Of a stretch of 64,000 bases of DNA, positions 39,682 to 53,962 are shown piece by piece. The position numbers and the translations under genes are program-made. This DNA is from Spirochaetia bacterium (GTDB lineage: Bacteria; Spirochaetota; Spirochaetia; SZUA-6; Bin103). Each line of letters opens with the position of its first letter. Position 1 is the stretch's first letter. The DNA is taken from positions 224,001-288,000 of the forward strand of contig CBDAOI010000004.1 in NCBI GenBank assembly GCA_965198005.1, given 5' to 3'. The notes below the pieces were generated by a model. The model searched no databases. It saw only the letters and a program-made list of their open reading frames with translations, and was not told where the DNA came from.

Positions 39682-41514
39682 CTAATGACCCATTGCTTCC
39701 TTCAGCGCACTATCAATCCAGAGGCGGGCGAAGACAACATGGTTTTGGGCTGTTCCAAAGCCGCCTTCGGCGTTATAACCTTTCACCCACGGCTGGTGTA
39801 CGCTAAACACTGGGGCCAAAGGTCCCCAGAGGAACCAGTGCTGCTCTACGATGCGCATGTCCATCTCTTTAGTCAGCCTCATCGCCTCCTCTATCGTGGT
39901 AGCCTGTAAATTGGCTTCATAAAAGGCGTCATATTGCGCGTCGGAGACTCCAGAAAAACTCCGTGCAGTGGCCGAGTAAAACTGTGACTGTGCCCACAAT
40001 GGGTAGAACGGATCAGCCTTGATGCCCGCATTCCACCAGGCCATATCATAGTCTGCCGCGCCTATTCGAGCCCCATATTCTGCACCACTTGAAGGTACCT
40101 CAATAACCACATCAACGCCAATCTCACGCCAGTATGCTGCCTGTAATTCTGTCCAGCTCAAATCCTCCGCGGGGTGGAGCACAAACGTGGCCTTGAATCT
40201 AATGCCGTCAGCGCCACGAGCATATCCAGCCTCATCAAGCAACGCTTCTGCCCTTGCCTGGTCATAGGTATAGTATCCCTTAAGCTCTTGGGGCCACTCT
40301 TCAAATGGTACGTGCCACCCCTTGAAGTCCCTGGCGATCAGCCCCCGAGGTATCGTATCCGCCTGACTCTTATAGTAGGTAGCATTCATCGTCTCGAGGT
40401 CCAGTGCCATCTGCAGTGCGTGGCGCACCCTGATGTCGTCCCCCCAGAGCGGCCTGCGCTGGTTCAAACTGACAGAAGTATTCGACCGTTCTGACCACGT
40501 GTGGAACACGAGTTCGGGGTTGGTCCGCATGATGCTCTCTGCCAGGTCTAGAGCCGTTAATTGAGAGGCGCCCGGCCAACCTATGAAATGGATCCTTCCA
40601 CTGCGCAGTCCTGCCAGAACTGTTGCGTTTTCCGTGATAGAGAGGCTCTTTAGCTCGTCAATATACGGCAGGAGGTTCTCCGGGAATTTTTCGTCGTAAC
40701 CCCAGTAGTTGGGATTCTTGGTGAAGGTCATAGAGCTGCCCGGCACCAAGTCAGTTAGCATAAAGGGGCCGGTGCCGACCACGCTCTGCCACTCCCAATC
40801 GGCCCCGTATTCCTCGAGTAGCTCGGGGGGCTGCACAACCGCATTGTTCCAGTCCAAGATAAGGCCCAGGCCACGGAGTCTTTGCTCCTTCAGCTTCATA
40901 ACGACCGTATATTTGTCGGTGGCCACTATCGATTCCCAAGGCAAATCTAGAAGGTTACCTCCTCCTGGGGAAGGTTCGGCTTCACTGAACTCGGTCCCTG
41001 TCAATTTATTTCCCAACAAGCGGTGAAAGGAATGTTCTACATCCTCGGCAGTTAGCTCCCGACCGTTCACCGGCGGCTTATCATGCCAGTGAACGCCCTG
41101 GCGGATGTGGAAGATATAGGTTGTGTCGTCAGGCTGTTCCCAGCTTTCCGTCAGCGCCCCCCGTAGGGCGTATACAGGTGTAAGGTAGCCGCCGACAAAG
41201 GGATATGTGTCCCTATCTATTGCCCAGTTCGTCATGGCCAGTTTCTCTATAACGCCACTGAGAATGTTTAGCGTTCCCCCACCGCCAATATGGGCATCCG
41301 GTCGACGGCTGGCGGGATCCAATCTCATGACCTGGGTCATTGTCCCGCCATACTCTGGCGCGGGCACCACCTGACCTGTGCTGGGGTCGGTCACATACTT
41401 CTTGTCGGCAGCGGCTGCCGGCTCCTCTTCTGCGCCAGCGGCCCAGAGGCCGGTCGCGGTCATTACGAGGACCAACGCAACCGCGAAGGTCTTCGTCATT
41501 CGTACAATATTCAT
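39682..41514 (-). CDS. Family 5 ABC substrate-binding protein
   Basis: Signal peptide ...LWAAGAEEE; FHIRQGVHWHD, VGTGPF and NPNYW motifs. Confidence 0.92.
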   Translation of the reverse strand: MNIVRMTKTFAVALVLVMTATGLWAAGAEEEPAAAADKKYVTDPSTGQVVPAPEYGGTMTQVMRLDPASRRPDAHIGGGGTLNILSGVIEKLAMTNWAIDRDTYPFVGGYLTPVYALRGALTESWEQPDDTTYIFHIRQGVHWHDKPPVNGRELTAEDVEHSFHRLLGNKLTGTEFSEAEPSPGGGNLLDLPWESIVATDKYTVVMKLKEQRLRGLGLILDWNNAVVQPPELLEEYGADWEWQSVVGTGPFMLTDLVPGSSMTFTKNPNYWGYDEKFPENLLPYIDELKSLSITENATVLAGLRSGRIHFIGWPGASQLTALDLAESIMRTNPELVFHTWSERSNTSVSLNQRRPLWGDDIRVRHALQMALDLETMNATYYKSQADTIPRGLIARDFKGWHVPFEEWPQELKGYYTYDQARAEALLDEAGYARGADGIRFKATFVLHPAEDLSWTELQAAYWREIGVDVVIEVPSSGAEYGARIGAADYDMAWWNAGIKADPFYPLWAQSQFYSATARSFSGVSDAQYDAFYEANLQATTIEEAMRLTKEMDMRIVEQHWFLWGPLAPVFSVHQPWVKGYNAEGGFGTAQNHVVFARLWIDSALKEAMGH

Positions 41515-42662
41515 AACGAACTCCATAGAGTAGTTTCTTGAGAGTATTGCGTAGCGGATTACCGCTCCCTGGCTACTCTCGGGCCCGCAACGCGGACGGC
41601 CAGTCTGAGTCAGATTCACTAAGCGCGCGGCGTGTGACTCAGCGGGTTCACCCCGGCTCACGCCGCGCGCGCGTGCGGTTCTTTGAGTATCATTCGAACC
41701 TCCTTCTTCTCTAGATCTACGTCGGGATCTGCGTTACAATCCCACGCGGGGCGGTGGCCGGCGAAGCAGCGAGTCTGAATGGCCGGCAACGCCGGCGGTG
41801 AGTCTTGCCGGCAGTCAGTCGCAGGCGGGGATCCGGGACGGTTGCGATCGCCGGGAAGGGCGTGGCCGGTCCGCATGCCGGTTTTGCGATGGACCGAGCC
41901 GGCGCAACCGATAGCTATAGCTACGGCGGTGGTGAAGGCGCCCGCGTGCGCGGGGTCGCGTACGCGGCGATCAGCCGGGGCGGTTAGTTGTTTGTCGGTT
42001 CGAAAAAGTGTGTGTGGGGGGGGGGACTCCTCACCATTAAGCAAGCGCGCCGCGAGCTGATTTTCAGCAAATCTCGGCGAGCGGCTGTCAGGGGAACAGA
42101 GTGTCATAAGCGTTGACGTGTTATAGGTCACTCAAGCCCTCCGCAGGTGAGGCACAGCCCTACCCAGATGTAGTCGCGATGTCGCGATTGACTGCATCCC
42201 ACCCTAGAATAACCTCCGCTCCCGTGGACGTCAACCACGAATGATGGCCTGAAGAGACAGTCTGGGGGGCCCACCATTTGTCAACCCCCGCCGCGAAAGG
42301 ATTTCCGGGGAGGGGGGGATGGGCAAGGGTAGGACACGCCGGCTGCGCTGCCGCTAACCGGTGGCAGCGCTGAGTAGCGTTTTCAGCCATCTTTTGCATC
42401 CGTTCAAACCTGAGACTCTTAGTATACCACCTCTGCGGCAACCAATCAACAGAAAAAAACAGGCGAATTGAAGGTTTCTTGAGATTTCTTTCAGGCAGCC
42501 GCGGCAGCCGAGAGCCCCTCGCGGCGCCGACTCGGGCGCATCGCCCCTCCGGAGCCGTCATTCGCCGGCGATGTGGCCGTCCCCAGGCCGTTCACCGTCC
42601 ACGTCGGCCTCACAGCGGCCCGCTGAGGGCCTTCCAGCCCCTCGGGGGTAAGCCTGGGGTAC

Positions 42663-44573
42663 GAGCGCCAGGCTAACTGGCATATGACAGAGGGTGAAAG
42701 TCCCTCGGAACGAAGGAGCAGCCAATCCACGTTTCTCCGCGAGCCGTGCGTTGGCACCTGCGAGGGTGCAGGCGAAGCGTCGGCAGCGGTGCGTGCGGGC
42801 AGAGTTATGGAGCGCCGCAAAATACGACATCTGGAGTGCCGAGACTCTGTACTCGGTCGAAGGCAACACCGGTCGAGCCAGTATGGTGAGGATCGACCGG
42901 GCTCCACGGCGTCGAAGAACTCAGGCACGTACGTACGTCATATACCGGGACCTGGGAGGTCTTCGGGTCGTCCCGGCGAGTCGTCGCCGGGACCGCGGAG
43001 GGAAGGCGTGAGGCTGGACCAAAGATGAACGACCCGAAGGAGTCGGACATGGGCATAGTAGCGGCGAAGCCGGCGAACAAGGGAGCGCAAGCGACTGCGG
43101 AGACGGTGGAGCGAAGGCCCATGACCAACGGGAATTCGCAAGGCCAAAGCACGGGCCGGACGCAGAGTCGGGCAACCGTGACACAGGCGGCCGAGCGGAT
43201 ACGGCAATTCGTAAAGAGAGAACCGCAGGAGAAACTCACTGCGCTGCTGCACCACGTGACGCCGGAAGCGCTGGGTGGCCTATTACGCGCTGAAGCGCGA
43301 AGCGGCCCCGGGGGTGGACGGGATGACGTGGCGGGAGTACGAGACGGGGTTGGAAGTGCCTTGCACGACCTGCACCGGAGAGTACACACAGGAGCGTACC
43401 GAGCGACCCCGGTACGGCGGGTCAACATCGACAAGCCGGACGGAGGCACACGACCGCTGGGGGTGGCCGCGCTGGAGGACAAGATCGTCCAGAAGGCCGT
43501 GGTGGATGTGATCCTGACACCGATCTATGAGGAGGAATTTCTCGGGATCAGCTATGGGTTTCGACCGGGGCGAGGGGCACACGATGCGTTGGACGCACTG
43601 GCCTACGCCATCGAACGGCGCAAAGTGAACTGGATATTGGACGCGGACATTCGCGGCTACTTCGATTCGATCTCGCGGGACTGGTTGATCAGATTCCTGG
43701 AGCATCGGATTGGAGATCGGCGGGTACTGCGGCTGATAAAGAAGTGGCTGCGCGCTGGGGTACTGGAAGAAGGCCGACAGATCGACGCGGGGCGGGGTAC
43801 AGCGCAAGGGTCGGTGATTTCACCGATGCTCGCGAATATATACTTGCACTACGTGTTGGACCTGTGGGTCACCAAGAAGTGGCGGCCGCAGGAGGCGCGC
43901 GGAGACATGATCATAGTGCGCTACGCAGATGACTATGTCGCCGGGTTCGAGCATCGTGACGATGCGGAACGCTTCCTGCGGGAACTGAAGGAGCGATTCA
44001 GAGGCTTCGAGCTGGAACTGAACGCCGACAAGACCCGACTCCTCGAGTTTGGACGGTATGCCGAAAGGAACCGCCTGGCGCGCGGAGAAGGGCGACCGGA
44101 GACGTTCGACTTTCTGGGTTTCACGCATTATTGCAGGAAGGACAGGAAAGGACGCTTCGGGCTGGGGCGGAAGCCAATTCGGAAGCGGATGAATCGTACC
44201 TGAAGAGGATCAAGATCGAGCTCCGCAGACGCATGCATGATGACGTGATGGAAACCGGGCGCTGGCTGGGACGGGTACTGCGCGGATGGCTCAACTACTA
44301 CGCGGTACCCACCAGCTACCGCTACCTGTTCGATTCGTGTGGCGTCTGCGAGGAATCTGGGTAAAGATTCTACGCCGGAGGTCCCAGAAGGACCGATTCT
44401 CCTGGGCTTGGATGCTGGCGATCAGCATCAAGCTGTGGCCCCAACCCCGAATCGTACACTCATGGCCGGACCGGCGATTTGCCGTCAACCACCGAAGGTA
44501 GGAGCCGGATGGTTTAACGACCACGTCCGGATCTGTGCGGGGGGCGCCGGGTAACCGGCGTTCCTACCGCGCC
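42663..44573 (+). mobile_element. Group II intron, copy 1 (bacterial class E-like)
   Basis: 5' GAGCG; domain V GAGCCGGATG...CACGTCCGGATC and domain VI; boundaries defined by comparison with copy 2 (3' end +/-1 nt). Confidence 0.9.
43025..44501 (+). CDS. Intron-encoded reverse transcriptase/maturase with several frameshifts, no endonuclease domain
   Basis: KPDGGTRPLG, SYGFRPGR, QGSVISP, RYADD, FDFLGF and GWLNYY motifs. Confidence 0.9.
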
Positions 44574-44771
44574 CCCCTGCAACACCCGTCAACGCCGATT
44601 CCCGGCACCGCTGGCTCCGTATTGACCGCGCCGCCACCGCCCGCAGCCCAGCCTGGTCGGGTCGCAGCCACCTCCAGGACCAGCTACAGGAGTCTGTCGG
44701 ATTGCGACAGACTCATAGCGGTCGGACGGGATGGGCCAAAAGCGGCGCCCCGGCGGTTTTGGGGCGCTAGG

Positions 44772-45027
44772 CGACGGCAGACCTCCTCGAGCGTCAAGCC
44801 GCCGCTCCGTCAGTCGCCGCGCGCGGGGGGAATGGGCCGTTGCTGCGGCCGTCGCGGCGCTCCGGAGGTGCAACCGCGAGCCGCTCGTCGGTTGAGTTCG
44901 AGGCTGCTCGGACAGGAGCGGCAGCACGAGCGCCGCCGCGGCGACGATCTCGGCACTCGGACCCGTTCAGGGCCGGCATTCACCGCCGATTGGCCGGCCC
45001 CCTGAGGGCCTTCCAAACCCAGGGAGG
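44772..45027. repeat. Repeated GC-rich non-coding element, copy B
   Basis: Near-identical to 46072-46363 apart from a roughly 35-nt gap. Confidence 0.9.
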
Positions 45028-46068
45028 TGCTCACCGGGGCGCGCATCCGTGAAGACCTGCAGGGCTGCGACGGGCTGCGCTGGATCACGACCTTGCGCGT
45101 GCCTACCATCCGCAAGCTGATTGCGAACGGTCAGGTGGCGCAGTCGATGTTCGACCAGCGTGATCTGGCCGAGATCAGCTCACCCGACTTCCCCCGCGAG
45201 CGGCTGATCGTGTGCCGCAACCCGGTGTTGGCTGACCAACGCCACCGCAAGCGGCTGGAGTTGCTGGCCGCCACCGAGGACAAGCTGGCCCCCATCGTGA
45301 GAGCCACGCAGCGTGCCAAAGATCCGCTGCGCGGCGCCGCTGAGATCGGTATGCGGGTGGGCAAGGTGATCAATCAGCACAAGGTGAGCAAGCATTTCAT
45401 CACCACGATCACTGAGGACTCATTCACCTATGAACGTGACCTCGAGAAGATCGCTGCCGAAGAAGAACTGGACGGGCTGTACATCGTCCGCTCCAACGTC
45501 GAGCCGGAGTTGTTCGACGCCGATCAGACGGTACGCGCGTACAAGGACCTGTCCAAGGTAGAGCGCGCCTTCCGCAGTATGAAGACGGTGGATCTGAAGG
45601 TGCGCCCGATCTACCACCGGCGCGCTGACCGGGTACGGGCGCACGTACTGTTGTGCATGCTGGCCTACTACGTGGAGTGGCACATGCGCAGCGAGTTGGC
45701 GCCGGTGCTGTTCGATGACCACGATCCGGAGGCGGCACAGCAGCAACGGTCATCGGTGGTGCGACCGGCACAGCGGTCGCCCCGGCGGCACAGAAGAAGG
45801 CGGCCAGGAAGCGCACCGCTGACGATCTGCCGGTGCACAGTTTTCGCAGCCTGATGAACGACTTGGGGACTCTGACGGTCAACAAGATGCAACTTGCCAA
45901 GGCAGGGAGCACGTTCTTGCTGCCGACGCAGCCGACACCGGTGCAGCAGCGCTGCTTCGAGCTACTGGGGGTATCGCCCCGGATGTAGCCACGCACGGCA
46001 CATGCCATTTTGAGCGTAACTATATGACCCCTCGTGACTTACCAAGCATTTGGCTCTGGAACTTCGGG
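45027..46068 (+). mobile_element. IS1634-family transposase 3' half with right end
   Basis: RLIVCRNP, LDGLYIVRSN, YKDLSKVERAFR and RVRAHVLLCMLAY motifs; frameshift near 45780; end GGAACTTCGG. Confidence 0.85.
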
Positions 46069-46071
46069 CTA

Positions 46072-46363
46072 CGACGGCAGACCTCCTCGAGCGTCGAGCC
46101 GCTGCTCCGTCAGTCGCCGCACGCGGGGGGAGGGGCCGTTGCTGCGGCCGTCGCGGCGCTCCGGTGGTGCAACCGCGAGCCGCTCGTCGGTTGAGTTCGA
46201 GGCTGCTCGGACAGGAGCGGCAGCACGAGCGCCGCCGCGGCGACGATCTCGGCACTCGGACCCGTTCAGGGCCGGCATTCACCGCCGATTGGCCGGCAGC
46301 GGGCCGCTCGGCGTCCGAGTCGGCCTCATAGCGGCCCCCTGACGGCCTTCCAAACCCAGGGAG
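46072..46363. repeat. Repeated GC-rich non-coding element, copy C (continues at 51191 after intron copy 2)
   Basis: Direct repeat of 44772-45027; diverged homolog at 42555-42662. Confidence 0.88.
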
Positions 46364-46726
46364 GGCGCGGTAGGAACGCCGGTTACCCGGCGCCCCCCGC
46401 ACAGATCCGGACGTGGTCGTTAAACCATCCGGCTCCTACCTTCGGTGGTTGACGGCAAATCGCCGGTCCGGCCATGAGTGTACGATTCGGGGTTGGGGCC
46501 ACAGCTTGATGCTGATCGCCAGCACACCGACCCTTGCGCTGTACCCCGCCCCGCGTCGATCTGTCGGCCTTCTTCCAGTACCCCAGCGCGCAGCCATTAT
46601 GGGCCCCCCGCTAATATGGGAACCTGGGCGCCATGAGCCGTTGCGTGGCAAGCGGTTAGGGGCTGAACAGGTTCCCATAACGTGCTGTCATCTCCCGGTG
46701 GTTTCTTACCACGAAGGAGATGAATC

Positions 46727-48274
46727 ATGGTCCTACCTTTCCGGCCCCATGCCTCACCCGGGGTCATCCAAGCGCTGGGGGAACGGGTCCTTCCGCCCTA
46801 CGAAGCGCATTTGAACGATCAGGGCTGTTCACCCGGCCTCTTGCACCGGTCGACAGCCACAGCCCGCCACATGATTGCGTGGCTGACGATCAACGAATCG
46901 GAGGTTGCGACACTCGACATCCGCGGCGTGTACCGCTTCCTGCGCCACGACTGCCACTGCCCAGCCGATGTCCGCAACCAGTCGGCCGCGCCGTCACCAT
47001 GGCACGCGCATCGTTTCCTCGGTTACTTGCTCGAAACCGGGCAGGCCGCGGTTCCCGCCTCGATCGTCACGGGCGGCGGACTGGTGGAAGCGTTTGCGGC
47101 CACCCTGGTGGCTCAAGGCTACCGGGAAGGGACCGTTCGCGGGGTGCGCAGCTCCTGTCGCCACCTCGTCGTCTGGCTGTACCGTTCGGAGCTCGCGTTG
47201 GGAGAGATCGAGGACCGCGTTCTGCAGCGGTTTCTCGACCATCGCTGCGATTGCGAGCACCCTGGATTCTTCGGCCGGTCCAGTGCATTCGCTGGAAGCC
47301 GCCGCACCCAGGCGGAGATCGCCAAGTTTGCCAGCTTCCTGATCGACCGGGATGTGGTTGCCGACTGGCGGGAGCCACTGCCGAAGGCCAGCGGCGGGGC
47401 CCATACCGACGCCTTCCTCCGCTGGCTGCGCCAGCACCGTGGTGTCCGCGACACCACCCTGAAGGCATACCGCCAATCCCTGCAAGCCCTGTTGCCGTTG
47501 CTGGGCGATGCCCCGGGCGCCTATGACGCCGCGTCGATCCGCGCGGTCATCCTGGGCCGTGCACAGTCCGGCTCCCGCAACACGGCCGAGGGCAGTGCCC
47601 TGCGATCGTACCTGCGCTTCTTGGCAGTCCAGGGGCTGTGCCGTCCGGGGCTCGTTGCTGCGGTCCCTACGATCCCGCGTCGGACCGCCTCGCAGTTGCC
47701 CCGGTATGTCGAGCAGGAAGACATCGAGGCCCTGATCGCGAGCTGCGACACCGCCACTTCCATCGGATTACGGGATCGGGCCGTCCTGCTGCTGCTGCTG
47801 CTGGCACGGCTCGCTCTGCGCCCCGGAGAAGTTGCCGCCTTGAGGCTCGACGACATCGACTGGGAGCAGGCGTTGGTCGCGGTCAGCGGGAAGTCGCGCC
47901 GCAGCGCAGCGCTGCCGTTGCCGCAGGAGACCGGGGACACCCTCAAGGACTACATCCTGCGAGCGCGACCGCGCACCGCCTGCCCGACGGTGCTTCCGCG
48001 ATTCCGTGCTCCGCACGGCTGCCTGTCCGCCTCCGCGGTCAGCGCAATCGTGCGCCGGGCCATGCAGCGGGCCGGGATCGACGGCGAGGGCCTCCCGGCC
48101 GCCTACGTGTTCCGTCACTCGAGAGCCACCCATCTGCTGCGCAGCGGAGCTGCGCCGGAGGCCGTCGGCGCCCTCCTGCGCCACCAGTCGGTGAAGACGA
48201 CCGCACTCTACGCTCGCGTGGATGCTCCGATGCTGCTCGCTGTGGCGCAGCCCTGGCCGGGGGAACCCCGATGA
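46727..48274 (+). CDS. Tyrosine recombinase RitA-like
   Basis: RDRAVL..LALRPGEV, FRHSRAT, LLRHQSVKTTALYA. Confidence 0.9.
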   Translation: MVLPFRPHASPGVIQALGERVLPPYEAHLNDQGCSPGLLHRSTATARHMIAWLTINESEVATLDIRGVYRFLRHDCHCPADVRNQSAAPSPWHAHRFLGYLLETGQAAVPASIVTGGGLVEAFAATLVAQGYREGTVRGVRSSCRHLVVWLYRSELALGEIEDRVLQRFLDHRCDCEHPGFFGRSSAFAGSRRTQAEIAKFASFLIDRDVVADWREPLPKASGGAHTDAFLRWLRQHRGVRDTTLKAYRQSLQALLPLLGDAPGAYDAASIRAVILGRAQSGSRNTAEGSALRSYLRFLAVQGLCRPGLVAAVPTIPRRTASQLPRYVEQEDIEALIASCDTATSIGLRDRAVLLLLLLARLALRPGEVAALRLDDIDWEQALVAVSGKSRRSAALPLPQETGDTLKDYILRARPRTACPTVLPRFRAPHGCLSASAVSAIVRRAMQRAGIDGEGLPAAYVFRHSRATHLLRSGAAPEAVGALLRHQSVKTTALYARVDAPMLLAVAQPWPGEPR

Positions 48275-49197
48275 CGCTGGCCGACCACGTTCTGACCTAT
48301 GCCGCGTTCAAGCGCGCCACCGGCCTGGCCTTCCGGGAACAGGAGCGGCTGCTGGCCAGCTTCGCCCGGCACGCCGAAGCGCGGGGCGAGCGAAGCGTGC
48401 GCGTCGAGACTTGTCTCGACTGGGCGTCGCAGTCTGCGTCACCGCATAAAAAACAACAGCGGCTGCACCTCGTCTGCGGGCTGGCAGCCTACTTGCATGC
48501 CGAGGACGAACGCCACGAGGTGCCCCACCGCGATGCACTCGGTCGCCAGAGGTATCACCGCCCGCCGCCGCGGCTCCTGTCGCTGGAGCAGATCTGCCAA
48601 GTCATGGATGCGGCGCTGGAGCTGCCTCCCGCCGGCTCCATCACCCCCGTGACCTTCCATTACCTGATCGGGCTGGTCGCGGCGACCGGCCTGCGCCGCG
48701 CGGAAGCCACGGGCCTGCGGCTCGATGACGCCGCTGCGGACGGATTGCAGATCCGCCACGCGAAAGGCGGCAAGCAGCGGCTCGTGCCCCTCCACGGGAG
48801 CGTGCGGACCGCACTGAACCGGTATCTGCAGATCCGCGGGCGATGCGGCAGCCCCAGCGACCGTCTCTTCGTGCTCGCCGGCGGCCGGCCCGTCCAACCG
48901 GACTACCTGTCCCATACCTTTGTCCGACTCGCGCGCCAGATCGGCCTGCGTGGGGGCCCGGGCGAGCCCGGCCCGCGCCTGCATGACCTTCGTCACAGCT
49001 TCGCGACGCGTGCCCTGGAGACCGCTGTGTCCGGCGGTCGGGCAGAGACCAGCCGGCACCTGCTCGCGCTGTCCACCTATCTCGGCCATGCCAACGCCAC
49101 TGATACCTACTGGTACCTCGAGGCAACCCCGGTCCTGCTGAACCAAGTGTCGGCAGCCACCGAAAGACTGCATGCGGGGAGGGGGGACGATGACTGA
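48271..49197 (+). CDS. Tyrosine recombinase RitB-like
   Basis: TGLRRAEA, RLHDLRHSFA, LSTYLGH..TYWYL. Confidence 0.92.
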   Translation: MTLADHVLTYAAFKRATGLAFREQERLLASFARHAEARGERSVRVETCLDWASQSASPHKKQQRLHLVCGLAAYLHAEDERHEVPHRDALGRQRYHRPPPRLLSLEQICQVMDAALELPPAGSITPVTFHYLIGLVAATGLRRAEATGLRLDDAAADGLQIRHAKGGKQRLVPLHGSVRTALNRYLQIRGRCGSPSDRLFVLAGGRPVQPDYLSHTFVRLARQIGLRGGPGEPGPRLHDLRHSFATRALETAVSGGRAETSRHLLALSTYLGHANATDTYWYLEATPVLLNQVSAATERLHAGRGDDD

Positions 49198-50014
49198 GCT
49201 CGCAGGGCCGCTGGCGGCCTTCCTCCAGGAGCACCTGCCGCGCGACCGCGGCGCCAGCCCGCATACCGTGGCGGGCTACGCCGCCAGCTTCAAGCTGCTG
49301 GCGGTCTTCGCGGCGGAGCGTCACAAGCTCCGGCCGTGCCGGCTGCAGGTCGGACATCTCGACATCCCGACGCTGCTCGCCTTTCTCAACCACCTCGAGA
49401 CGGACCGCGACAACGGCGTGCGGACCCGCAACGCCCGCTTGTCTGCGATCAAGTCCTTCTTCCGCTACCTGGAGTTCCGCCACCCGGAATGCTTGGATCT
49501 GGCGGCACAAGTGCATGCGCTGCCCCAAAAGAAAGCCGATCTGCCCCCGCTCGACTACCTCGACCGCGACGAGGTCCGGGCGCTGCTCGAGGCCCCCGCC
49601 ACCCACACGGTCACCGGCCTGCGGGATCGCGCCATGCTGTGCCTGGCCTACAATGCCGGCCTGCGCGTCTCGGAACTGGTCGGCCTGGCCCTGGACGACC
49701 TCCAGGCACCGGGACTCGACCGCATCCGGATCCTGGGCAAGGGCCGCCGCGGCCGCGTCCTGCCGCTGTGGAAGGAAACCCGCGGCGCGCTGCGCACTTG
49801 GCTCGGTGTCCGGCCGGACTGCCCCGACCGGCATCTGTTCCTGAACGCCTTCAAAACCGGCCTGACGCGACGCGGCTTCGCCAAGAGACTCGCCTTGCAC
49901 GCCAAGGCCGCGGCACGCGCAGTACCTTCGATCGCGGGCAAGGCCATCACGCCACACGCCCTGCGCCACGCCTGCGCACTTCATACGCGTTATGGGAACC
50001 TGCTCAGCCCCTAA
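49190..50014 (+). pseudogene. Tyrosine recombinase RitC-like, truncated before the catalytic Tyr
   Basis: GLRVSEL, TPHALRHACA, then breaks at about 49988 into the inverted repeat. Confidence 0.88.
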
Positions 50015-51379
50015 CCGCTTGCCACGCAACGGCTCATGGCGCCCAGGTTCCCATATTAGCGGGGGGCCCATAATGGCTGTTACCGGAACGTTCCGATAAC
50101 AGCCACTTCTTTATCAGCCGCAGCACCCGCCGATCTCCAATCCGATGCTCCAGGAATCTGATCAACCAGTCCCGCGAGATCGTGTCGAAGTAGGCGCGAA
50201 TGTCCGCGTCCAATATCCAGTTCACTTTGCGCCGTTCGATGGCGTAGGCCAGTGCGTCCAACGCATCGTGTGCCCCGCGCCCCGGTCGAAACCCATAGCT
50301 GATCCCGAGAAATTCCTCCTCATAGATCGGTGTCAGGATCACATCCACCACGGCCTTCTGGACGATCTTGTCCTCCAGCGCGGCCACCCCCAGCGGTCGT
50401 GTGCCTCCGTCCGGCTTGTCGATGTTGACCCGCCGTACCGGGGTCGCTCGGTACGCTCCTGTGTGTACTCGCCGGTGCAGGTCGTGCAAGCGCACTTCCA
50501 ACCCCGTCTCGTACTCCCGCCACGTCATCCCGTCCACCCCCGGGGCCGCTTCACGCTTCAGCGCGTAATAGGCCACCCGCAGCGCTTCCGGCGTCACGTG
50601 GTGCAGCAGCGCAGTGAGTTTCTCCTGCGGTTCTCTCTTTACGAATTGCCGTATCCGCTCGGCCGCCTGTGTCACGGTTGCCCGACTCTGCGTCCGGCCC
50701 GTGCTTTGACCTTGCGAATTCCCGTTGGTCATGGGCCTTCGCTCCACCGTCTCCGCAGTCGCTTGCGCTCCCTTGTTCGCCGGCTTCGCCGCTACTATGC
50801 CCATGTCCGACTCCTTCGGGTCGTTCATCTTTGGTCCAGCCTCACGCCTTCCCTCCGCGGTCCCGGCGACGACTCGCCGGGACGACCCGAAGACCTCCCA
50901 GGTCCCGGTATATGACGTACGCACGTGCCTGAGTTCTTCGACGCCGTGGAGCCCGGTCGATCCTCACCATACTGGCTCGACCGGTGTTGCCTTCGACCGA
51001 GTACAGAGTCTCGGCACTCCAGATGTCGTATTTTGCGGCGCTCCATAACTCTGCCCGCACGCACCGCTGCCGACGCTTCGCCTGCACCCTCGCAGGTGCC
51101 AACGCACGGCTCGCGGAGAAACGTGGATTGGCTGCTCCTTCGTTCCGAGGGACTTTCACCCTCTGTCATATGCCAGTTAGCCTGGCGCTCATACCCAGGG
51201 CACCCCCCGGAATCCCGCAAAATGCCCGTCAAAGCCGTTTCCCACCACCGCCGACACCGCTGACACCGCGCGGTCCGCCACCCGGCTCCCGTGTGCCACC
51301 TCGAACATCAATCCGAGACCGGCACTGATCAGCGCTTGCAGGTCAGGAACGACGTGAGGTGCGGGCTGCGGAACCCCCC

Positions 51380-51661
51380 TCAGTCGCGCCCATACCCGCG
51401 CGGCGGCTCGACGCTCTCCAGTTCGGCAAGATCAAGCCCGCACATCGCCTCCAGCCGCTGTGCGACCGCGGACTCCTGGAGACTGTCGGGCAAGTGGTCG
51501 AGCCACGCTTGATACTCACCCTGGAGGTCGAGCAGGGTGCCCACCGCATCCTGCCAGCGCTGCGGTCGGGACCTGCGGTCTTGCGGCCTGCGGTACTGCA
51601 CCCGGGGCTGCGCTGCCTTGCGGCGCTCTCGATAGCGCCGTTCCGCGTTACTTACCGCCAC
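51380..51661 (-). CDS. Hypothetical protein
   Basis: GGGAAG RBS with GTG start; basic N-terminus, YQAWLDHLPDSL...PPRGYGRD. Confidence 0.65.
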   Translation of the reverse strand: MAVSNAERRYRERRKAAQPRVQYRRPQDRRSRPQRWQDAVGTLLDLQGEYQAWLDHLPDSLQESAVAQRLEAMCGLDLAELESVEPPRGYGRD

Positions 51662-51828
51662 TGCTCTACTTCCCGTTACGCTCCGTTACGTAACAGGTTA
51701 AAAGTTCGGATTTCCGTGCACCGGTGCCGGTTCGCGCCGAGCAGTCTCACCGCGCCTCCTGCCGGGTCTCCGGTCGCTCCCGTGAGCGGCGGGGACGACG
51801 CTTCCCGCGCCCGGCCCACCTTCCCCCA

Positions 51829-53091
51829 TCAGGCGGTCAGCGGTCGCGGAGCCCGGTGCTGTGGATCAAACTGCGTGCGGTCACGCAGCATCGCGCACGC
51901 CACCGCGAGCAACCGGTCCGCGACCGTACGCAGCGCCCGGCCATGGCGCTGCCCGCGCGCGCGCAGCGCCGCATACCGCTCCCGACTCACCGGATCGTGC
52001 TGGATCGCCACCCGCGCCCAGTGATACATCGCGTTGCTCAGCCGCTGGTTGCAGGCACGGCGCATGCTCACCTGGCAACTCTTCCCCGACCGCTTGGTCA
52101 CCGGCGCCACCCCGGTCAGAATCCGCAACCTGTGGTAGTCTCGCTCAGCCAGCAACTGTGAGGCCTCCGCGAACAGCGTGGCGAGCACGATCCGACCGAC
52201 ACCGGGCATCGAACGCAGGATGACGGCGTCACGCTGCTCTTCTGGTTCACCCGAGTCGTCGGCGGCCACAATCTCGGCCAGCAGTTCGTCGAGCCGGCTG
52301 TGCGCCTGTTTGAGTTGCTGGTCGACCAGCTTCAGCCGGGCGATGACGCTCGCGATGTGCGCCGTAGCCGCCGCTATCGTCCCGCGGCCCACCTCAAGCG
52401 GCTGCTGCCGCAGGATGCGCAGCACACCGGCAGCAGCGTGGCGCCGGATGCGGTTGCGCTTCAGGATGGCCGCGACCGACGCCTTCCGGACCCGCGCTGC
52501 CTCCGCCGGCGTCGGCGCCTTCTCCCACAACTCCAGAACCCAGCCCGCGCCGAGGTCACCGCCCAGCTCGATCAGCTGCGGGTAGTAGCGGCGCAGTTGC
52601 TCGCGCATGCGATTGATCAGCCCGTTGCGTTCCTCCTGCAACTCGGCAGTCAGGCGCGACCATTCCCGCAACTCGATCACCGGCGGTGCCTGCACCTGCA
52701 ACTGACGAAAGCTGCGTCGGTCGGTGCGCAGCGAGTCTGCCAACACCCGCGCGTCGCGCCGGTCATCCTTGGCGCCGGCCACCGTAAACCGGTCACGAAA
52801 TCGATCCAGCTGCTTCGGATTGATCGCGTACACCTGCACCTCCCGCTCCAGCAGCATCTCGACCACCGCGCCATGCGGCACCTCGATCCCCGCGTGCACG
52901 CGCTCCGGGTGCCCGCCGGATAGCTCGTGCAACCACGCGCACAAGTCGGCGATGCCGGCGCCGCTATGGGCCACCTGCCGTTCCGCGACCACCTCCCCGT
53001 CACCCTCAAGCACACAGATCTGATGTTGCTGGGTCGCCCAATCGATACCCACGAACCACTGTTCGGTCTGTTCGGTCTGTTCGGTTGACAT
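51829..53091 (-). CDS. IS110-family recombinase
   Basis: DEDD residues FVGIDW, GIE, KDDRRDA; PGVG and APVTKRSG motifs; GGAGG RBS. Confidence 0.95.
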   Translation of the reverse strand: MSTEQTEQTEQWFVGIDWATQQHQICVLEGDGEVVAERQVAHSGAGIADLCAWLHELSGGHPERVHAGIEVPHGAVVEMLLEREVQVYAINPKQLDRFRDRFTVAGAKDDRRDARVLADSLRTDRRSFRQLQVQAPPVIELREWSRLTAELQEERNGLINRMREQLRRYYPQLIELGGDLGAGWVLELWEKAPTPAEAARVRKASVAAILKRNRIRRHAAAGVLRILRQQPLEVGRGTIAAATAHIASVIARLKLVDQQLKQAHSRLDELLAEIVAADDSGEPEEQRDAVILRSMPGVGRIVLATLFAEASQLLAERDYHRLRILTGVAPVTKRSGKSCQVSMRRACNQRLSNAMYHWARVAIQHDPVSRERYAALRARGQRHGRALRTVADRLLAVACAMLRDRTQFDPQHRAPRPLTA

Positions 53092-53119
53092 CCTGTCACC
53101 TCCCGAGATTGTGGAGCTC

Positions 53120-53305
53120 GGCTGCCACGATGTCGTTCCACCCCTGTACTGGTGCTCCGGTGCTCCGGTGCTCCTGGCACCTTCCCACCTGGCACTACTC
53201 CTCACTGGGTATCCATCGCGGCACTCCTACCGGGGCACATGTCCCCCCCGGGCGCTCTACGGCGCGGGGGGCTCAAGGTTGCTCCCGGTAGGCTGCCTTG
53301 CCCGC
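53120..53305 (-). ncRNA. Putative IS110 bridge RNA
   Basis: Two stems with internal loops (CCTACCGGG/CCCGGTAGG and TGCCGCGATG/CATCGTGGCA); the second loop carries two 9-nt matches to the element end at 53352-53371. Confidence 0.75.
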
Positions 53306-53416
53306 CTGGGATTCTAGCAGTCCCTGGCGAACTATCTAATCTCTATAAAGGGTACAGGGGGGACTCCTCACCATTTGTCAACCCCCGCGAAACGAATTCT
53401 TGGAACTCCCGCCGGG

Positions 53417-53962
53417 GGGGGCGCAGCGAGGCTAGCTGCTGAACTTGCGGGTGTAAGTCCCGCCGGCGCAAATCCCAGTGTGGCGCCGTAGTTATATCCG
53501 GCAGTCGACAGGGGCGACTCTGACGGCTGAAAGCCCGGAAGTAAACGTACTCAGGGGAGGGCGTGAGCCCGACCGACCAACCTAGGAGGCTAACAACCAG
53601 AAGGGCCGTAGCGAGAGCGAACGGACTAATCGCCGAAAACCTCCCCAGCGGGAAGTTGGTTGCTGGATCTCGGAGTGCCAAGGGTTTCCCCCTCCTACCC
53701 GATGGCCAGTGCTGCTGCGGAAGAAACTGGGAAGTGCACGCGGTAGGCTCCCGGCGGAAGTTGAAGGCGGCAATTCTGGATAGTTCAGCAGTGAAAGCCC
53801 GGAAGGTGTGCTGCTCAGGCAGGATGATCCTCGAATGCCAAGGACCGGACCTATAACCGCTGGATGGCGGGAAGTGGAACGGAGAGCAGCAGACTGGCGG
53901 ATGAGGCCACCAAGCGACGATGGCCGCGACAACATAACGCGGCTGGAGCGAGGGCCTCAGGG
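53417..53962 (+). mobile_element. 5' fragment (domain I region) of a different group II intron, cut by IS3 copy 2
   Basis: GGGCG..GGTGTAAGTCC start, structured non-coding sequence, GACAACATAAC motif; no RT ORF. Confidence 0.6.

Follow-up and report, generated by a model that had tools for sequence, protein, structure and literature searches.

An IS110-family insertion sequence with a putative bridge RNA in the C-runs of transporter leaders of a Spirochaetia bacterium

The window analysed here is a stretch of 64,000 nucleotides (nt) from a Spirochaetia bacterium (assembly GCA_965198005.1, contig CBDAOI010000004.1, positions 224,001 to 288,000). It belongs to a genome of 4.89 Mb with 65.8% G+C, the whole of which was searched at the DNA level for copies of the sequences described below. 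On the minus strand of the window lies an insertion sequence (IS) of the IS110 family, with a left end, a leader that folds into two internal-loop modules and is read here as a bridge RNA, a recombinase gene and, beyond a long mosaic of other mobile DNA, a probable right end (Table 1). Just outside the left end, across a run of six C, stands a short stretch that resembles the right end of such an element. On the minus strand this site reads TTGACA (53381-53376), AATG, GTGAGGAGT (53371-53363), C6 (53362-53357) and TGTACCC from 53356, and its two sides recur in the second loop of the leader, as GTGAGGAGT at 53205-53197 and GTACAGGGG at 53149-53141. Given the base composition, 9.4e-4 and 2.6e-3 matches to the two 9-mers would be expected by chance in the 219-nt leader, and both in the right order at about 1.2e-6. 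An earlier note on this DNA, made from its letters alone, had singled out both 9-mers, the TTGACA and an extended -10 box, TGCTAGAAT (53319-53311); re-reading of the minus strand found each of them in place.

The recombinase matches PF01548 (2.2e-34, residues 14-171) and PF02371 (1.3e-15), and its only matches in PDB are the recombinases of IS621 and ISCro4 (E = 3.3e-8, mainly in the Tnp domain). D17, D110 and D113 align opposite D11, D102 and D105 of IS621 (chain 8wt6_A), an I-E pair aligns at the E60 region, the first aligned stretch being weak alone (i-Evalue 0.26), and the S-G of the KRSGKS motif aligns with S241-G242. In IS621, D11, D102, D105 and S241-G242 are described as catalytic residues (Hiraizumi et al. 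2024, PMC11208158). Thus, both the N-terminal DEDD RuvC-like domain (PF01548 and the aligned D residues) and the C-terminal Tnp domain with its catalytic serine (PF02371 and the aligned S-G) are present. The genome contains 14 matches to PF01548, at most two of which (C2:198742-199176 and C4:366371-366649) do not coincide with a copy or a fragment of the element.

In IS621 of E. coli, a member of the IS110 group, the bridge RNA is reported to lie in the left end upstream of the recombinase, its first loop reading the target and its second the donor, with a 2-nt core read by both sides (PMC11208160; PMC11208158). The leader in the window folds on its own into two internal-loop modules (-108 kcal/mol, z = -3.44), and one of 200 shuffled sequences folds as well. 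We collected 31 related loci from other genomes (44-84% protein identity; Spirochaetia, Hyphomicrobiaceae, Bradyrhizobium, Acidobacteriota and others) and aligned 20 leaders, one from the window, two from diverged copies in its own genome and 17 from the related loci, leaving out near-duplicates and loci without the 5' part. RNAalifold predicts an outer and an inner helix in each of the two modules. Pair statistics were calculated for these four helices (29 pairs), and a fifth helix, in which the donor guides are paired together, was dropped. Pairing is retained in 96.0% of the cells of the alignment versus 85.6% in shuffles, and changes on both sides occur in 20 of the 29 pairs versus 11.5; none of 500 shuffles reaches any of these measures. 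When the partners are slid by 1-3 columns, pairing falls to 25-57%. The covariation of the four helices thus places a structured RNA, with its two internal loops, in the DNA from the left terminus to the recombinase gene. An Rfam scan of the leader returned no family at E up to 1. A scan for internal promoters over 53000-53480 gave a single sigma-70-like site (0.1 in shuffles), composed of TAGATA (53338-53333), a 16-nt spacer and TAGAAT preceded by TG; this coincides with the box named in the earlier note, and the extended -10 promoter TGCTAGAAT most likely drives the bridge RNA.

The guides were read from the columns of the leader alignment according to the bridge-RNA geometry reported by Durrant et al. 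2024 (PMC11208160), with two handshake letters 3' of each right guide as given by Hiraizumi et al. 2024 (PMC11208158), and the flanks were taken from the related loci. The right end was located in 13 of 18 loci examined, and the 9-mer of the left donor guide (LDG) is identical to its last 9 nt in 10 of them and differs by one mismatch in the other 3; CC follows the right end in 12 of the 13. Exactly matching guide and end come in three types (GTGAGGAGT, GTGGGGAGT and ATAGGAGGT), and a fourth pair, in locus L028, is off by one letter. The right donor guide (RDG) GUACA and the following GG are nearly invariant among the relatives, with a compensatory case on this 3' side in L031, where the left end is TATAC and the guide GUAUA. 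The dinucleotide that follows the core-binding GG fits the final dinucleotide of the left flank in L025 (AG/CT), L028 (GC/GC) and L017 (GA/TC). In the target loop, the right target guide (RTG) is the stretch directly 5' of a conserved GGAC and is the reverse complement of the right flank, for example over 8 letters in L017 and 7 each in L022, L025, L028 and L029, and the left target guide (LTG), the stretch after GGGAGC, matches the left flank, for example over 10 letters in L020, 9 each in L015, L028 and L032, and 8 in L029. The mean longest common run between left guide and flank is 6.73 for a locus's own flank (15 loci) versus 4.19 for 210 mismatched pairs, and for the right guide it is 6.31 (13 loci) versus 3.67 (156 mismatched pairs). 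Moreover, the conserved AC of GGAC complements the GT that ends every right end, which would fit a handshake role. In the window, the LDG matches the right end at 42034-42026 in 9/9 letters, and GUACAGG stands opposite CC+TGTAC. Compensatory change and the tracking of ends and flanks by the guides in relatives argue that the bridge RNA is real, and together with the recombinase they identify the element, as far as sequence can, as an insertion sequence of the IS110 family and IS110 group with a bridge RNA in its left end.

These results bear out the proposal of the earlier note that the leader is an IS110 bridge RNA and that its second loop is the donor loop, with a 5' side identical to the final 9 nt of the right end and a 3' side reverse-complementary to core and left end; the covariation of guides and ends across homologs, which that note had named as a check, is what the relatives display. 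Its division of the C6-TGTAC stretch into CC and CCCCTGTAC probably has to be revised, positional homology giving TGTAC as the left end and CC as the core. Its assignment of the target to loop 1 survives in part. The string CCTTGAG does belong to the LTG, whereas ACATGTG is not the right guide, which is CCGGGGG followed by GG, 5' of the AC; ACATGTG consists of the handshake AC and of letters lying partly in the outer helix (pairs 96-98 with 154-156). The C-run and the G-run that had been taken for a stem are, by positional homology, the two target guides. A guess at the target built from the loop-1 strings of the earlier note gave 69 genome matches at up to 3 mismatches, with no repeated site, and was dropped.

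The target loop carries ..CCUUGAGCCC-CC and CCGGGGG-GG-AC, and the element would therefore be programmed for ..CCTTGAGCCC-CC-CCCCCGG, that is, GAG, about ten C and GG, when read in the register derived from the homologs. The predicted donor is GTGAGGAGT-CC-TGTAC, and a circle joint would read GGAGT-CC-TGTAC, with two C. With a homopolymer as target, one target guide is the complement of the other, and the two would zip into a helix in the free RNA. Around the window copy, the right side of the insertion fits the target loop (CC and the C-run, 7 letters) and the left side fits in its C only. Three hairpins of the form GGGGGGC-TTGA-GCCCCCC elsewhere in the genome (C3:682970, C3:457297 and C4:589270) match the LTG string and have neither the predicted right half nor a visible insertion. 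In the related locus L020, on a contig of a Bradyrhizobium metagenome-assembled genome, a second left end upstream of the recombinase gene is joined directly to LTG-coding DNA (..GCTGCCTAATCCACC|TGTACC..); it seems that this element, or a part of it, has gone into the DNA that codes for its own guide and that imitates the left half of the target.

The left boundary is set by nine left-end copies in the genome, which agree from the C-run onward (the agreement starting at 53361/53362), have 5-12 C before TGTAC and differ in their upstream sequence. Since they agree only from the C-run onward, GTGAGGAGT at 53371-53363 lies outside the element. On the other side, AATGGTGAGGAGT occurs at 42038-42026 on the minus strand, followed by ten C, 9.8 kb past the stop codon of the recombinase; TTAATGGTGAGGAGT is present in 20 copies in the genome. 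The order of IS 5' part, intron and right-end module recurs at C1:208800-202150, C4:1722400-1718050, C4:1655400-1651500 and C4:1384200-1380100, and because it does so at four other loci with different outer flanks, 42026 is taken as the right end of the element. Three copies with both ends (the window, C1:208769-202238 and C4:1722343-1718132) likewise sit between different outer flanks. The statement of the earlier note that no right end is visible after the transposase is thus correct for the first 9.8 kb and wrong beyond. As for the core, CC comes next in 21 of the 24 genome ends that read AATGGTGAGGAGT (at least 7 C in 15 of them, which fits the right target guide), and at least 5 C precede TGTAC in 9/9 left ends; the same core dinucleotide, in a probable register within the C-run, is found at both junctions. 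Compared with loop 1, the insertion sites of the other copies agree on the C-run side and depart from the left guide beyond its C.

The window copy appears to have reached its length of 11.3 kb (53356 to 42026) by taking up two group II introns and a recombinase element. The reverse-transcriptase gene of the first intron is cut at 50100 by a 3.5-kb insert (50099-46597), and a DDE-transposase open reading frame (ORF) follows the remainder of this intron. The 3' stretches of the related loci L014 and L015 are not homologous to that of the window, and no uninterrupted version can be defined from these two relatives. The 3.5-kb insert itself contains two overlapping tyrosine-recombinase ORFs (46727-49194, plus strand) with Phage_integrase matches, one of which also has a SAM-like N-domain. 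Copies of one group II intron occupy a near-palindromic site (..GGGGGGTGCCCTGG|G.. and ..GGGGGTAAGCCTGGG|..) in either orientation, in the window at 51194 (minus) and 42644 (plus) and elsewhere at C4:1380852, C4:1652208 and C4:1718769; about 20 copies are present in the genome, with 5' ends GTGCG, GTACG or GTATG. Units of about 350 nt, made of window positions 51290-51195 and neighbouring pieces, form tandem arrays at C1:19984-20683 and C4:167766-173168, some of them interrupted by intron copies.

The outer flanks of the whole insertion are the two halves, X and Y, of a leader. A paralogous site at C2:12707, which holds one of the five other copies of X, is empty and reads X-C13-Y, matching the outer flanks of the window, X (53700-53422) and Y (from 42015 downward). 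Because X and Y are contiguous there, the whole of 53413-42026 has been inserted in the C-run of a leader. The downstream gene for the substrate-binding protein (SBP) lies 355 nt from the C-run, within the range of 81 paralogs: a same-strand run of at least 8 C is found within 1.5 kb upstream of 81 of 156 SBP paralog matches, mostly at 100-440 nt, and 89 of 160 runs of at least 8 C are upstream of an SBP paralog. C or G runs of at least 9 number 121 in the genome and are over-represented, with a heavy tail to 20 and beyond. The 156 tblastn matches to paralogs of a single SBP_bac_5 protein represent a very large transporter family for a 4.9-Mb genome, half of it behind C-run leaders. Opposite leader half X, at 53445-53616 on the plus strand, Rfam gives a weak match to group-II-D1D4-4 (51.6 bits, cut-off 49), covered at depth 80-340 in two RNA libraries; X may be a leader, an intron fragment or both.

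The 51-nt stub beside the left end is present in four copies in the genome, each between C-runs, and three of these stand at other leaders with no adjoining IS. Its 9-mer GTGAGGAGT is found upstream of the left end in none of the eight other left-end copies. Counting the C that follows, its last 25 nt are 100% identical to the right end of the relative L014. A second type of right-end-like stub (..GGAATCCTTTCGCGGCGGGGGTTG[AG]CAAATGGTGGGG) occurs between C-runs in about nine leaders (e.g. C4:826313, C4:685856 and C2:458312), and also within the window at about 42310, inside the 618-nt right-end module and 273-280 nt before its end. Other ends beside C-runs (..GCATCATA, ..GCGCTTATG and ..CCTACCCTTG) were considered as right ends of further IS110 elements; in the two loci checked there is no upstream transposase ORF, and they are regarded as leader halves. 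As 3' ends of group II introns they fared no better, an Rfam scan of five loci giving one unrelated intron match only.

Part of the stretch is represented in eight RNA-labelled public runs, and contigs of four runs were mapped on 51150-53800. Two sponge metatranscriptome libraries of one study have contigs over 53190-53361 and 53111-53288, with no differences from the window and at depth 6-10; DNA carry-over is possible, and the copies are identical. No contig from either RNA library covers 52930-53107, which is crossed by contigs of two unlabelled (DNA-type) runs. These data provide a weak hint that the bridge RNA is transcribed. The joints found among the mapped contigs are internal deletions that are present in other copies.

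Table 1. Features of the IS110-family element and its surroundings (window coordinates)
Feature	Position	Strand	Remarks
Leader half X, left flank of whole insertion	53422..53700	-	Five other copies, 94-100% identity
C8 run left of stub	53414..53421	-	
Right-end-like stub, 51 nt, outside the IS	53363..53413	-	Ends TTGACAAATG-GTGAGGAGT
C6 run	53357..53362	-	Read, by positional homology, as probable last four nt of left target plus core CC
Left end to internal promoter	53311..53356	-	TGTAC 53356-53352, TAGATA 53338-53333, TGCTAGAAT 53319-53311
Bridge RNA (putative)	53100..53304	-	Ends approximate: start placed from the -10 box, end from the last conserved helix
Target-binding loop	53241..53279	-	Column map from homologs; same columns match flanks in relatives
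Left target guide (LTG) ACCUUGAGCCC	53279-53269	-	Followed by core-binding CC 53268-53267
Target-loop inner hairpin	53265-53252	-	
Right target guide (RTG) CCGGGGG	53251-53245	-	Followed by core-binding GG 53244-53243, handshake AC 53242-53241
Donor-binding loop	53141..53205	-	Inner hairpin carries GGAGCACC repeats
Left donor guide (LDG) GUGAGGAGU	53205-53197	-	Same sense as last 9 nt of right end
Right donor guide (RDG) GUACA	53149-53145	-	Followed by core-binding GG 53144-53143, handshake GG 53142-53141
IS110-family recombinase gene	51829..53091	-	420 aa, intact; ORF 53091-51832, stop codon 51831-51829
3' non-coding stretch, mosaic of repeat units	51195..51828	-	Sub-stretches recur alone or in tandem elsewhere
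Group II intron in 3' stretch	46357..51194	-	5' end GTATGAGCGCC at 51194; Rfam RF02005, 169.5 bits
Second group II intron copy, inverted	42644..45100	+	Reverse-transcriptase ORF 43025-44200
618-nt right-end module	42026..42643	-	Ends TTGCTTAATG-GTGAGGAGT (42034-42026)
C10 run after right end (core CC and right target)	42016..42025	-	Followed by (AC)4 and leader half Y
ABC-transporter substrate-binding protein gene, leader split by the insertion	39685..41661	-	PF00496 at 5.8e-62

We favour, with a probability of roughly 0.7, the reading that this is a genuine bridge-RNA IS110 element programmed for C-runs in transporter leaders, which entered a C-run directly downstream of an older right-end stub. 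It draws on the family assignment, the RNA fold with its covariation, the matches of guides to ends and flanks in relatives, the boundaries, the copies of the stub, the paralogous site without an insertion and the association of C-runs with transporters. In molecular terms, the left end would encode a bridge RNA of about 200 nt, and the GUGAGGAGU of its donor loop would base-pair with the right end's bottom strand. The last GG of the donor loop would serve as the handshake for a left target ending in CC, and the AC of the target loop would play this part for the terminal GT of the right end. The element would land in the C-run between the two leader halves of operons for substrate-binding proteins of ABC transporters. 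An older element would have left its right-end stub in such a C-run, and the present one, which may still be active today, would later have entered the remainder of the same run. Insertion beside the stub would bring together a 9-mer resembling the left donor (LD), six C and a left end, and such a row would be a head-to-tail pile-up on a landing pad used by both elements.

Two other accounts of the adjoining stub and left end have to be weighed against this one. The closer competitor, which we nevertheless regard as unlikely, holds that the donor loop itself placed the copy: the circle would have recombined with the left-donor half-site of the stub (GTGAGGAGT + CC) by a half-match, giving stub, core and left end in a row. 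Two preprints (10.64898/2026.08.31.748434; 10.64898/2026.08.14.744561) describe recombination by half-match and report that LD-only matches are in excess where expanded IS110 loci have their boundaries, and the 9-mer of the stub equals the LDG in 9/9 letters, whereas the left target guide fits the flank in C only. However, a crossover at the core of the stub would leave 2 C, or at most 4 were the left end to begin two C before TGTAC, and the window has 6, which argues mildly against it; homopolymer slippage or an assembly error could mask this difference. Moreover, since eight other copies entered C-runs in the same register of 5-12 C without an adjoining LD, no special mechanism is needed. 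The earlier note had taken the site for an intact junction of right end and left end in the chromosome; such a junction could derive from a tandem dimer or a re-integrated circle joint and would offer a full donor site and a junction promoter. What it saw of the donor loop is accurate, both 9-mers matching it, and TTGACA stands upstream as it does in the right ends of relatives. Nevertheless, a circle junction is quite improbable here. The stub lies outside the element and resembles the element's own right-end module in its last 13-15 nt only (TTGCTTAATGG..), the preceding 36 nt being unrelated, and the same stub stands alone at three other leaders. Between its 9-mer and TGTAC there are 6 C, compared with 2 expected for a circle joint. 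The distance from TTGACA to TACCCT is 21 nt, compared with 17 nt from the -35-like box to TACC(C/A/T)T in the predicted joints of relatives and of the element's own right end, and the promoter scan pairs the TTGACA of the stub with no -10, so that a junction promoter was not found. On the simplest account, the apparent end-to-end junction beside the element is what an earlier element's end left behind, not the closed-circle joint of the element itself.

We find it barely credible that the fold is no functional RNA at all, the leader being a region of protein binding or translational control and the matches to the ends ordinary terminal repeats. Such a view could point to the empty Rfam result and to a discrete transcript that has no direct proof. 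Against it stand the compensatory changes in 20 of the 29 pairs and the parallel variation of the guide columns and of flanks beyond the element, for which terminal repeats cannot account; furthermore, the same architecture has been demonstrated experimentally for IS621 in the published account (PMC11208160).

Several observations nevertheless weigh against the bridge-RNA reading favoured here. The left target guide fits the actual left flanks in this genome in C positions only (in the window, the common run is 6, all C), and no genome site fits the whole predicted target, the 12 matches to TTGAGC{6,} being nine bridge-RNA genes and three hairpins that lack the right half; the misfit of the left guide, combined with the missing full-length match, is the weakest point. 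Within the homopolymer the core register is not directly readable, TGTAC being placed as the probable left end from the alignment columns, and a long-read assembly may give the wrong length for a homopolymer. Between the left end and the right end lie 11 kb of mosaic DNA, including a leader-like piece with a stub of the second kind, so that the unity of the element rests on recurrence; among the genome copies there is no uninterrupted one to prove the right end at 42026. Among the relatives, the right end was not found in 5 of the 18 loci, four of which are cut by contig ends and one of which, L031, is a true miss within 1.4 kb, and our own search filter for right ends tolerated up to one mismatch and demanded a TTG box within 13 nt. 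Finally, transcription is only hinted at, and no joint between the element ends was seen among the contigs mapped to 51150-53800, a stretch that does not contain the right end.

The C-run may also act as a self-regenerating pad, an extension that we regard as a long shot. Since the target is a homopolymer, every insertion would leave a right end and a C-run behind, and the product ..GAG(T)CCCCCC.. still resembles the target ..GAGCCCCCC. Elements and stubs would then stack head to tail in transporter leaders, sites joining a stub to a left end would act as near-donors that could recombine with the 80-odd other leader C-runs without prior excision, and the TTGACA of the stub could be a portable -35 for the downstream operon. 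If this is true, near-donor sites could invert, delete or re-wire transporter operons.

The case is of interest as a natural bridge RNA for which about 20 relatives reveal the register of guides, core and handshake letters. It indicates that a homopolymer can be the programmed target of such a system, whose target loop is then able to close on itself, and it presents an element colonising one regulatory feature of a sponge-associated spirochaete, the C-runs found in dozens of its transporter-operon leaders, where right-end stubs and nested mobile DNA have built up. The 'expanded IS110 locus' and 'half-site' ideas of the 2026 preprints are here worked through on a natural case, which also warns against taking every donor-loop match next to an element for a circle junction.

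Overall, the element is a known kind of system whose unusual feature is its homopolymer target. The IS1111 group, which uses a seekRNA, shares with it the recombinase family and the RNA-guided logic; there the RNA lies downstream of the recombinase gene, whereas here it is found upstream, in the left end. The likeness to IS621 is closer and extends, as far as the two reports describe that system, to the DEDD RuvC-like and Tnp domains with an aligned S-G, the upstream RNA, the order of the loops, the 2-nt core and the handshakes 3' of the right guides (PMC11208160; PMC11208158). By contrast, protein similarity is low, the recombinase has 420 residues here and 326 in IS621, and the core is CC here and CT in IS621. 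The element further differs from IS621 in its homopolymer target with self-complementary target guides, its internal extended -10, the weakness of a junction promoter and its expansion to 11.3 kb. The expanded IS110 loci reported by Hu et al. 2026 (10.64898/2026.08.14.744561), with LD-only half-match boundaries and tandem non-coding units, resemble it in growing by nested and adjacent DNA, in the piling up of short non-coding units that end in a left donor and in repeated insertions into occupied sites. Unlike the plasmid or resistance cargo described in that preprint, growth here came from group II introns and a tyrosine-recombinase element, and the pile-up, unlike that of the loci described there, may be accounted for by a homopolymer that serves as landing pad and survives each insertion in part. 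Similarly, IS110-family elements such as ISPpu10 are described as landing in a multi-copy conserved intergenic sequence (10.64898/2026.03.19.712850), as does the present element, although its landing site is a C-run inside operon leaders and not a repeat of the repetitive extragenic palindromic (REP) type.

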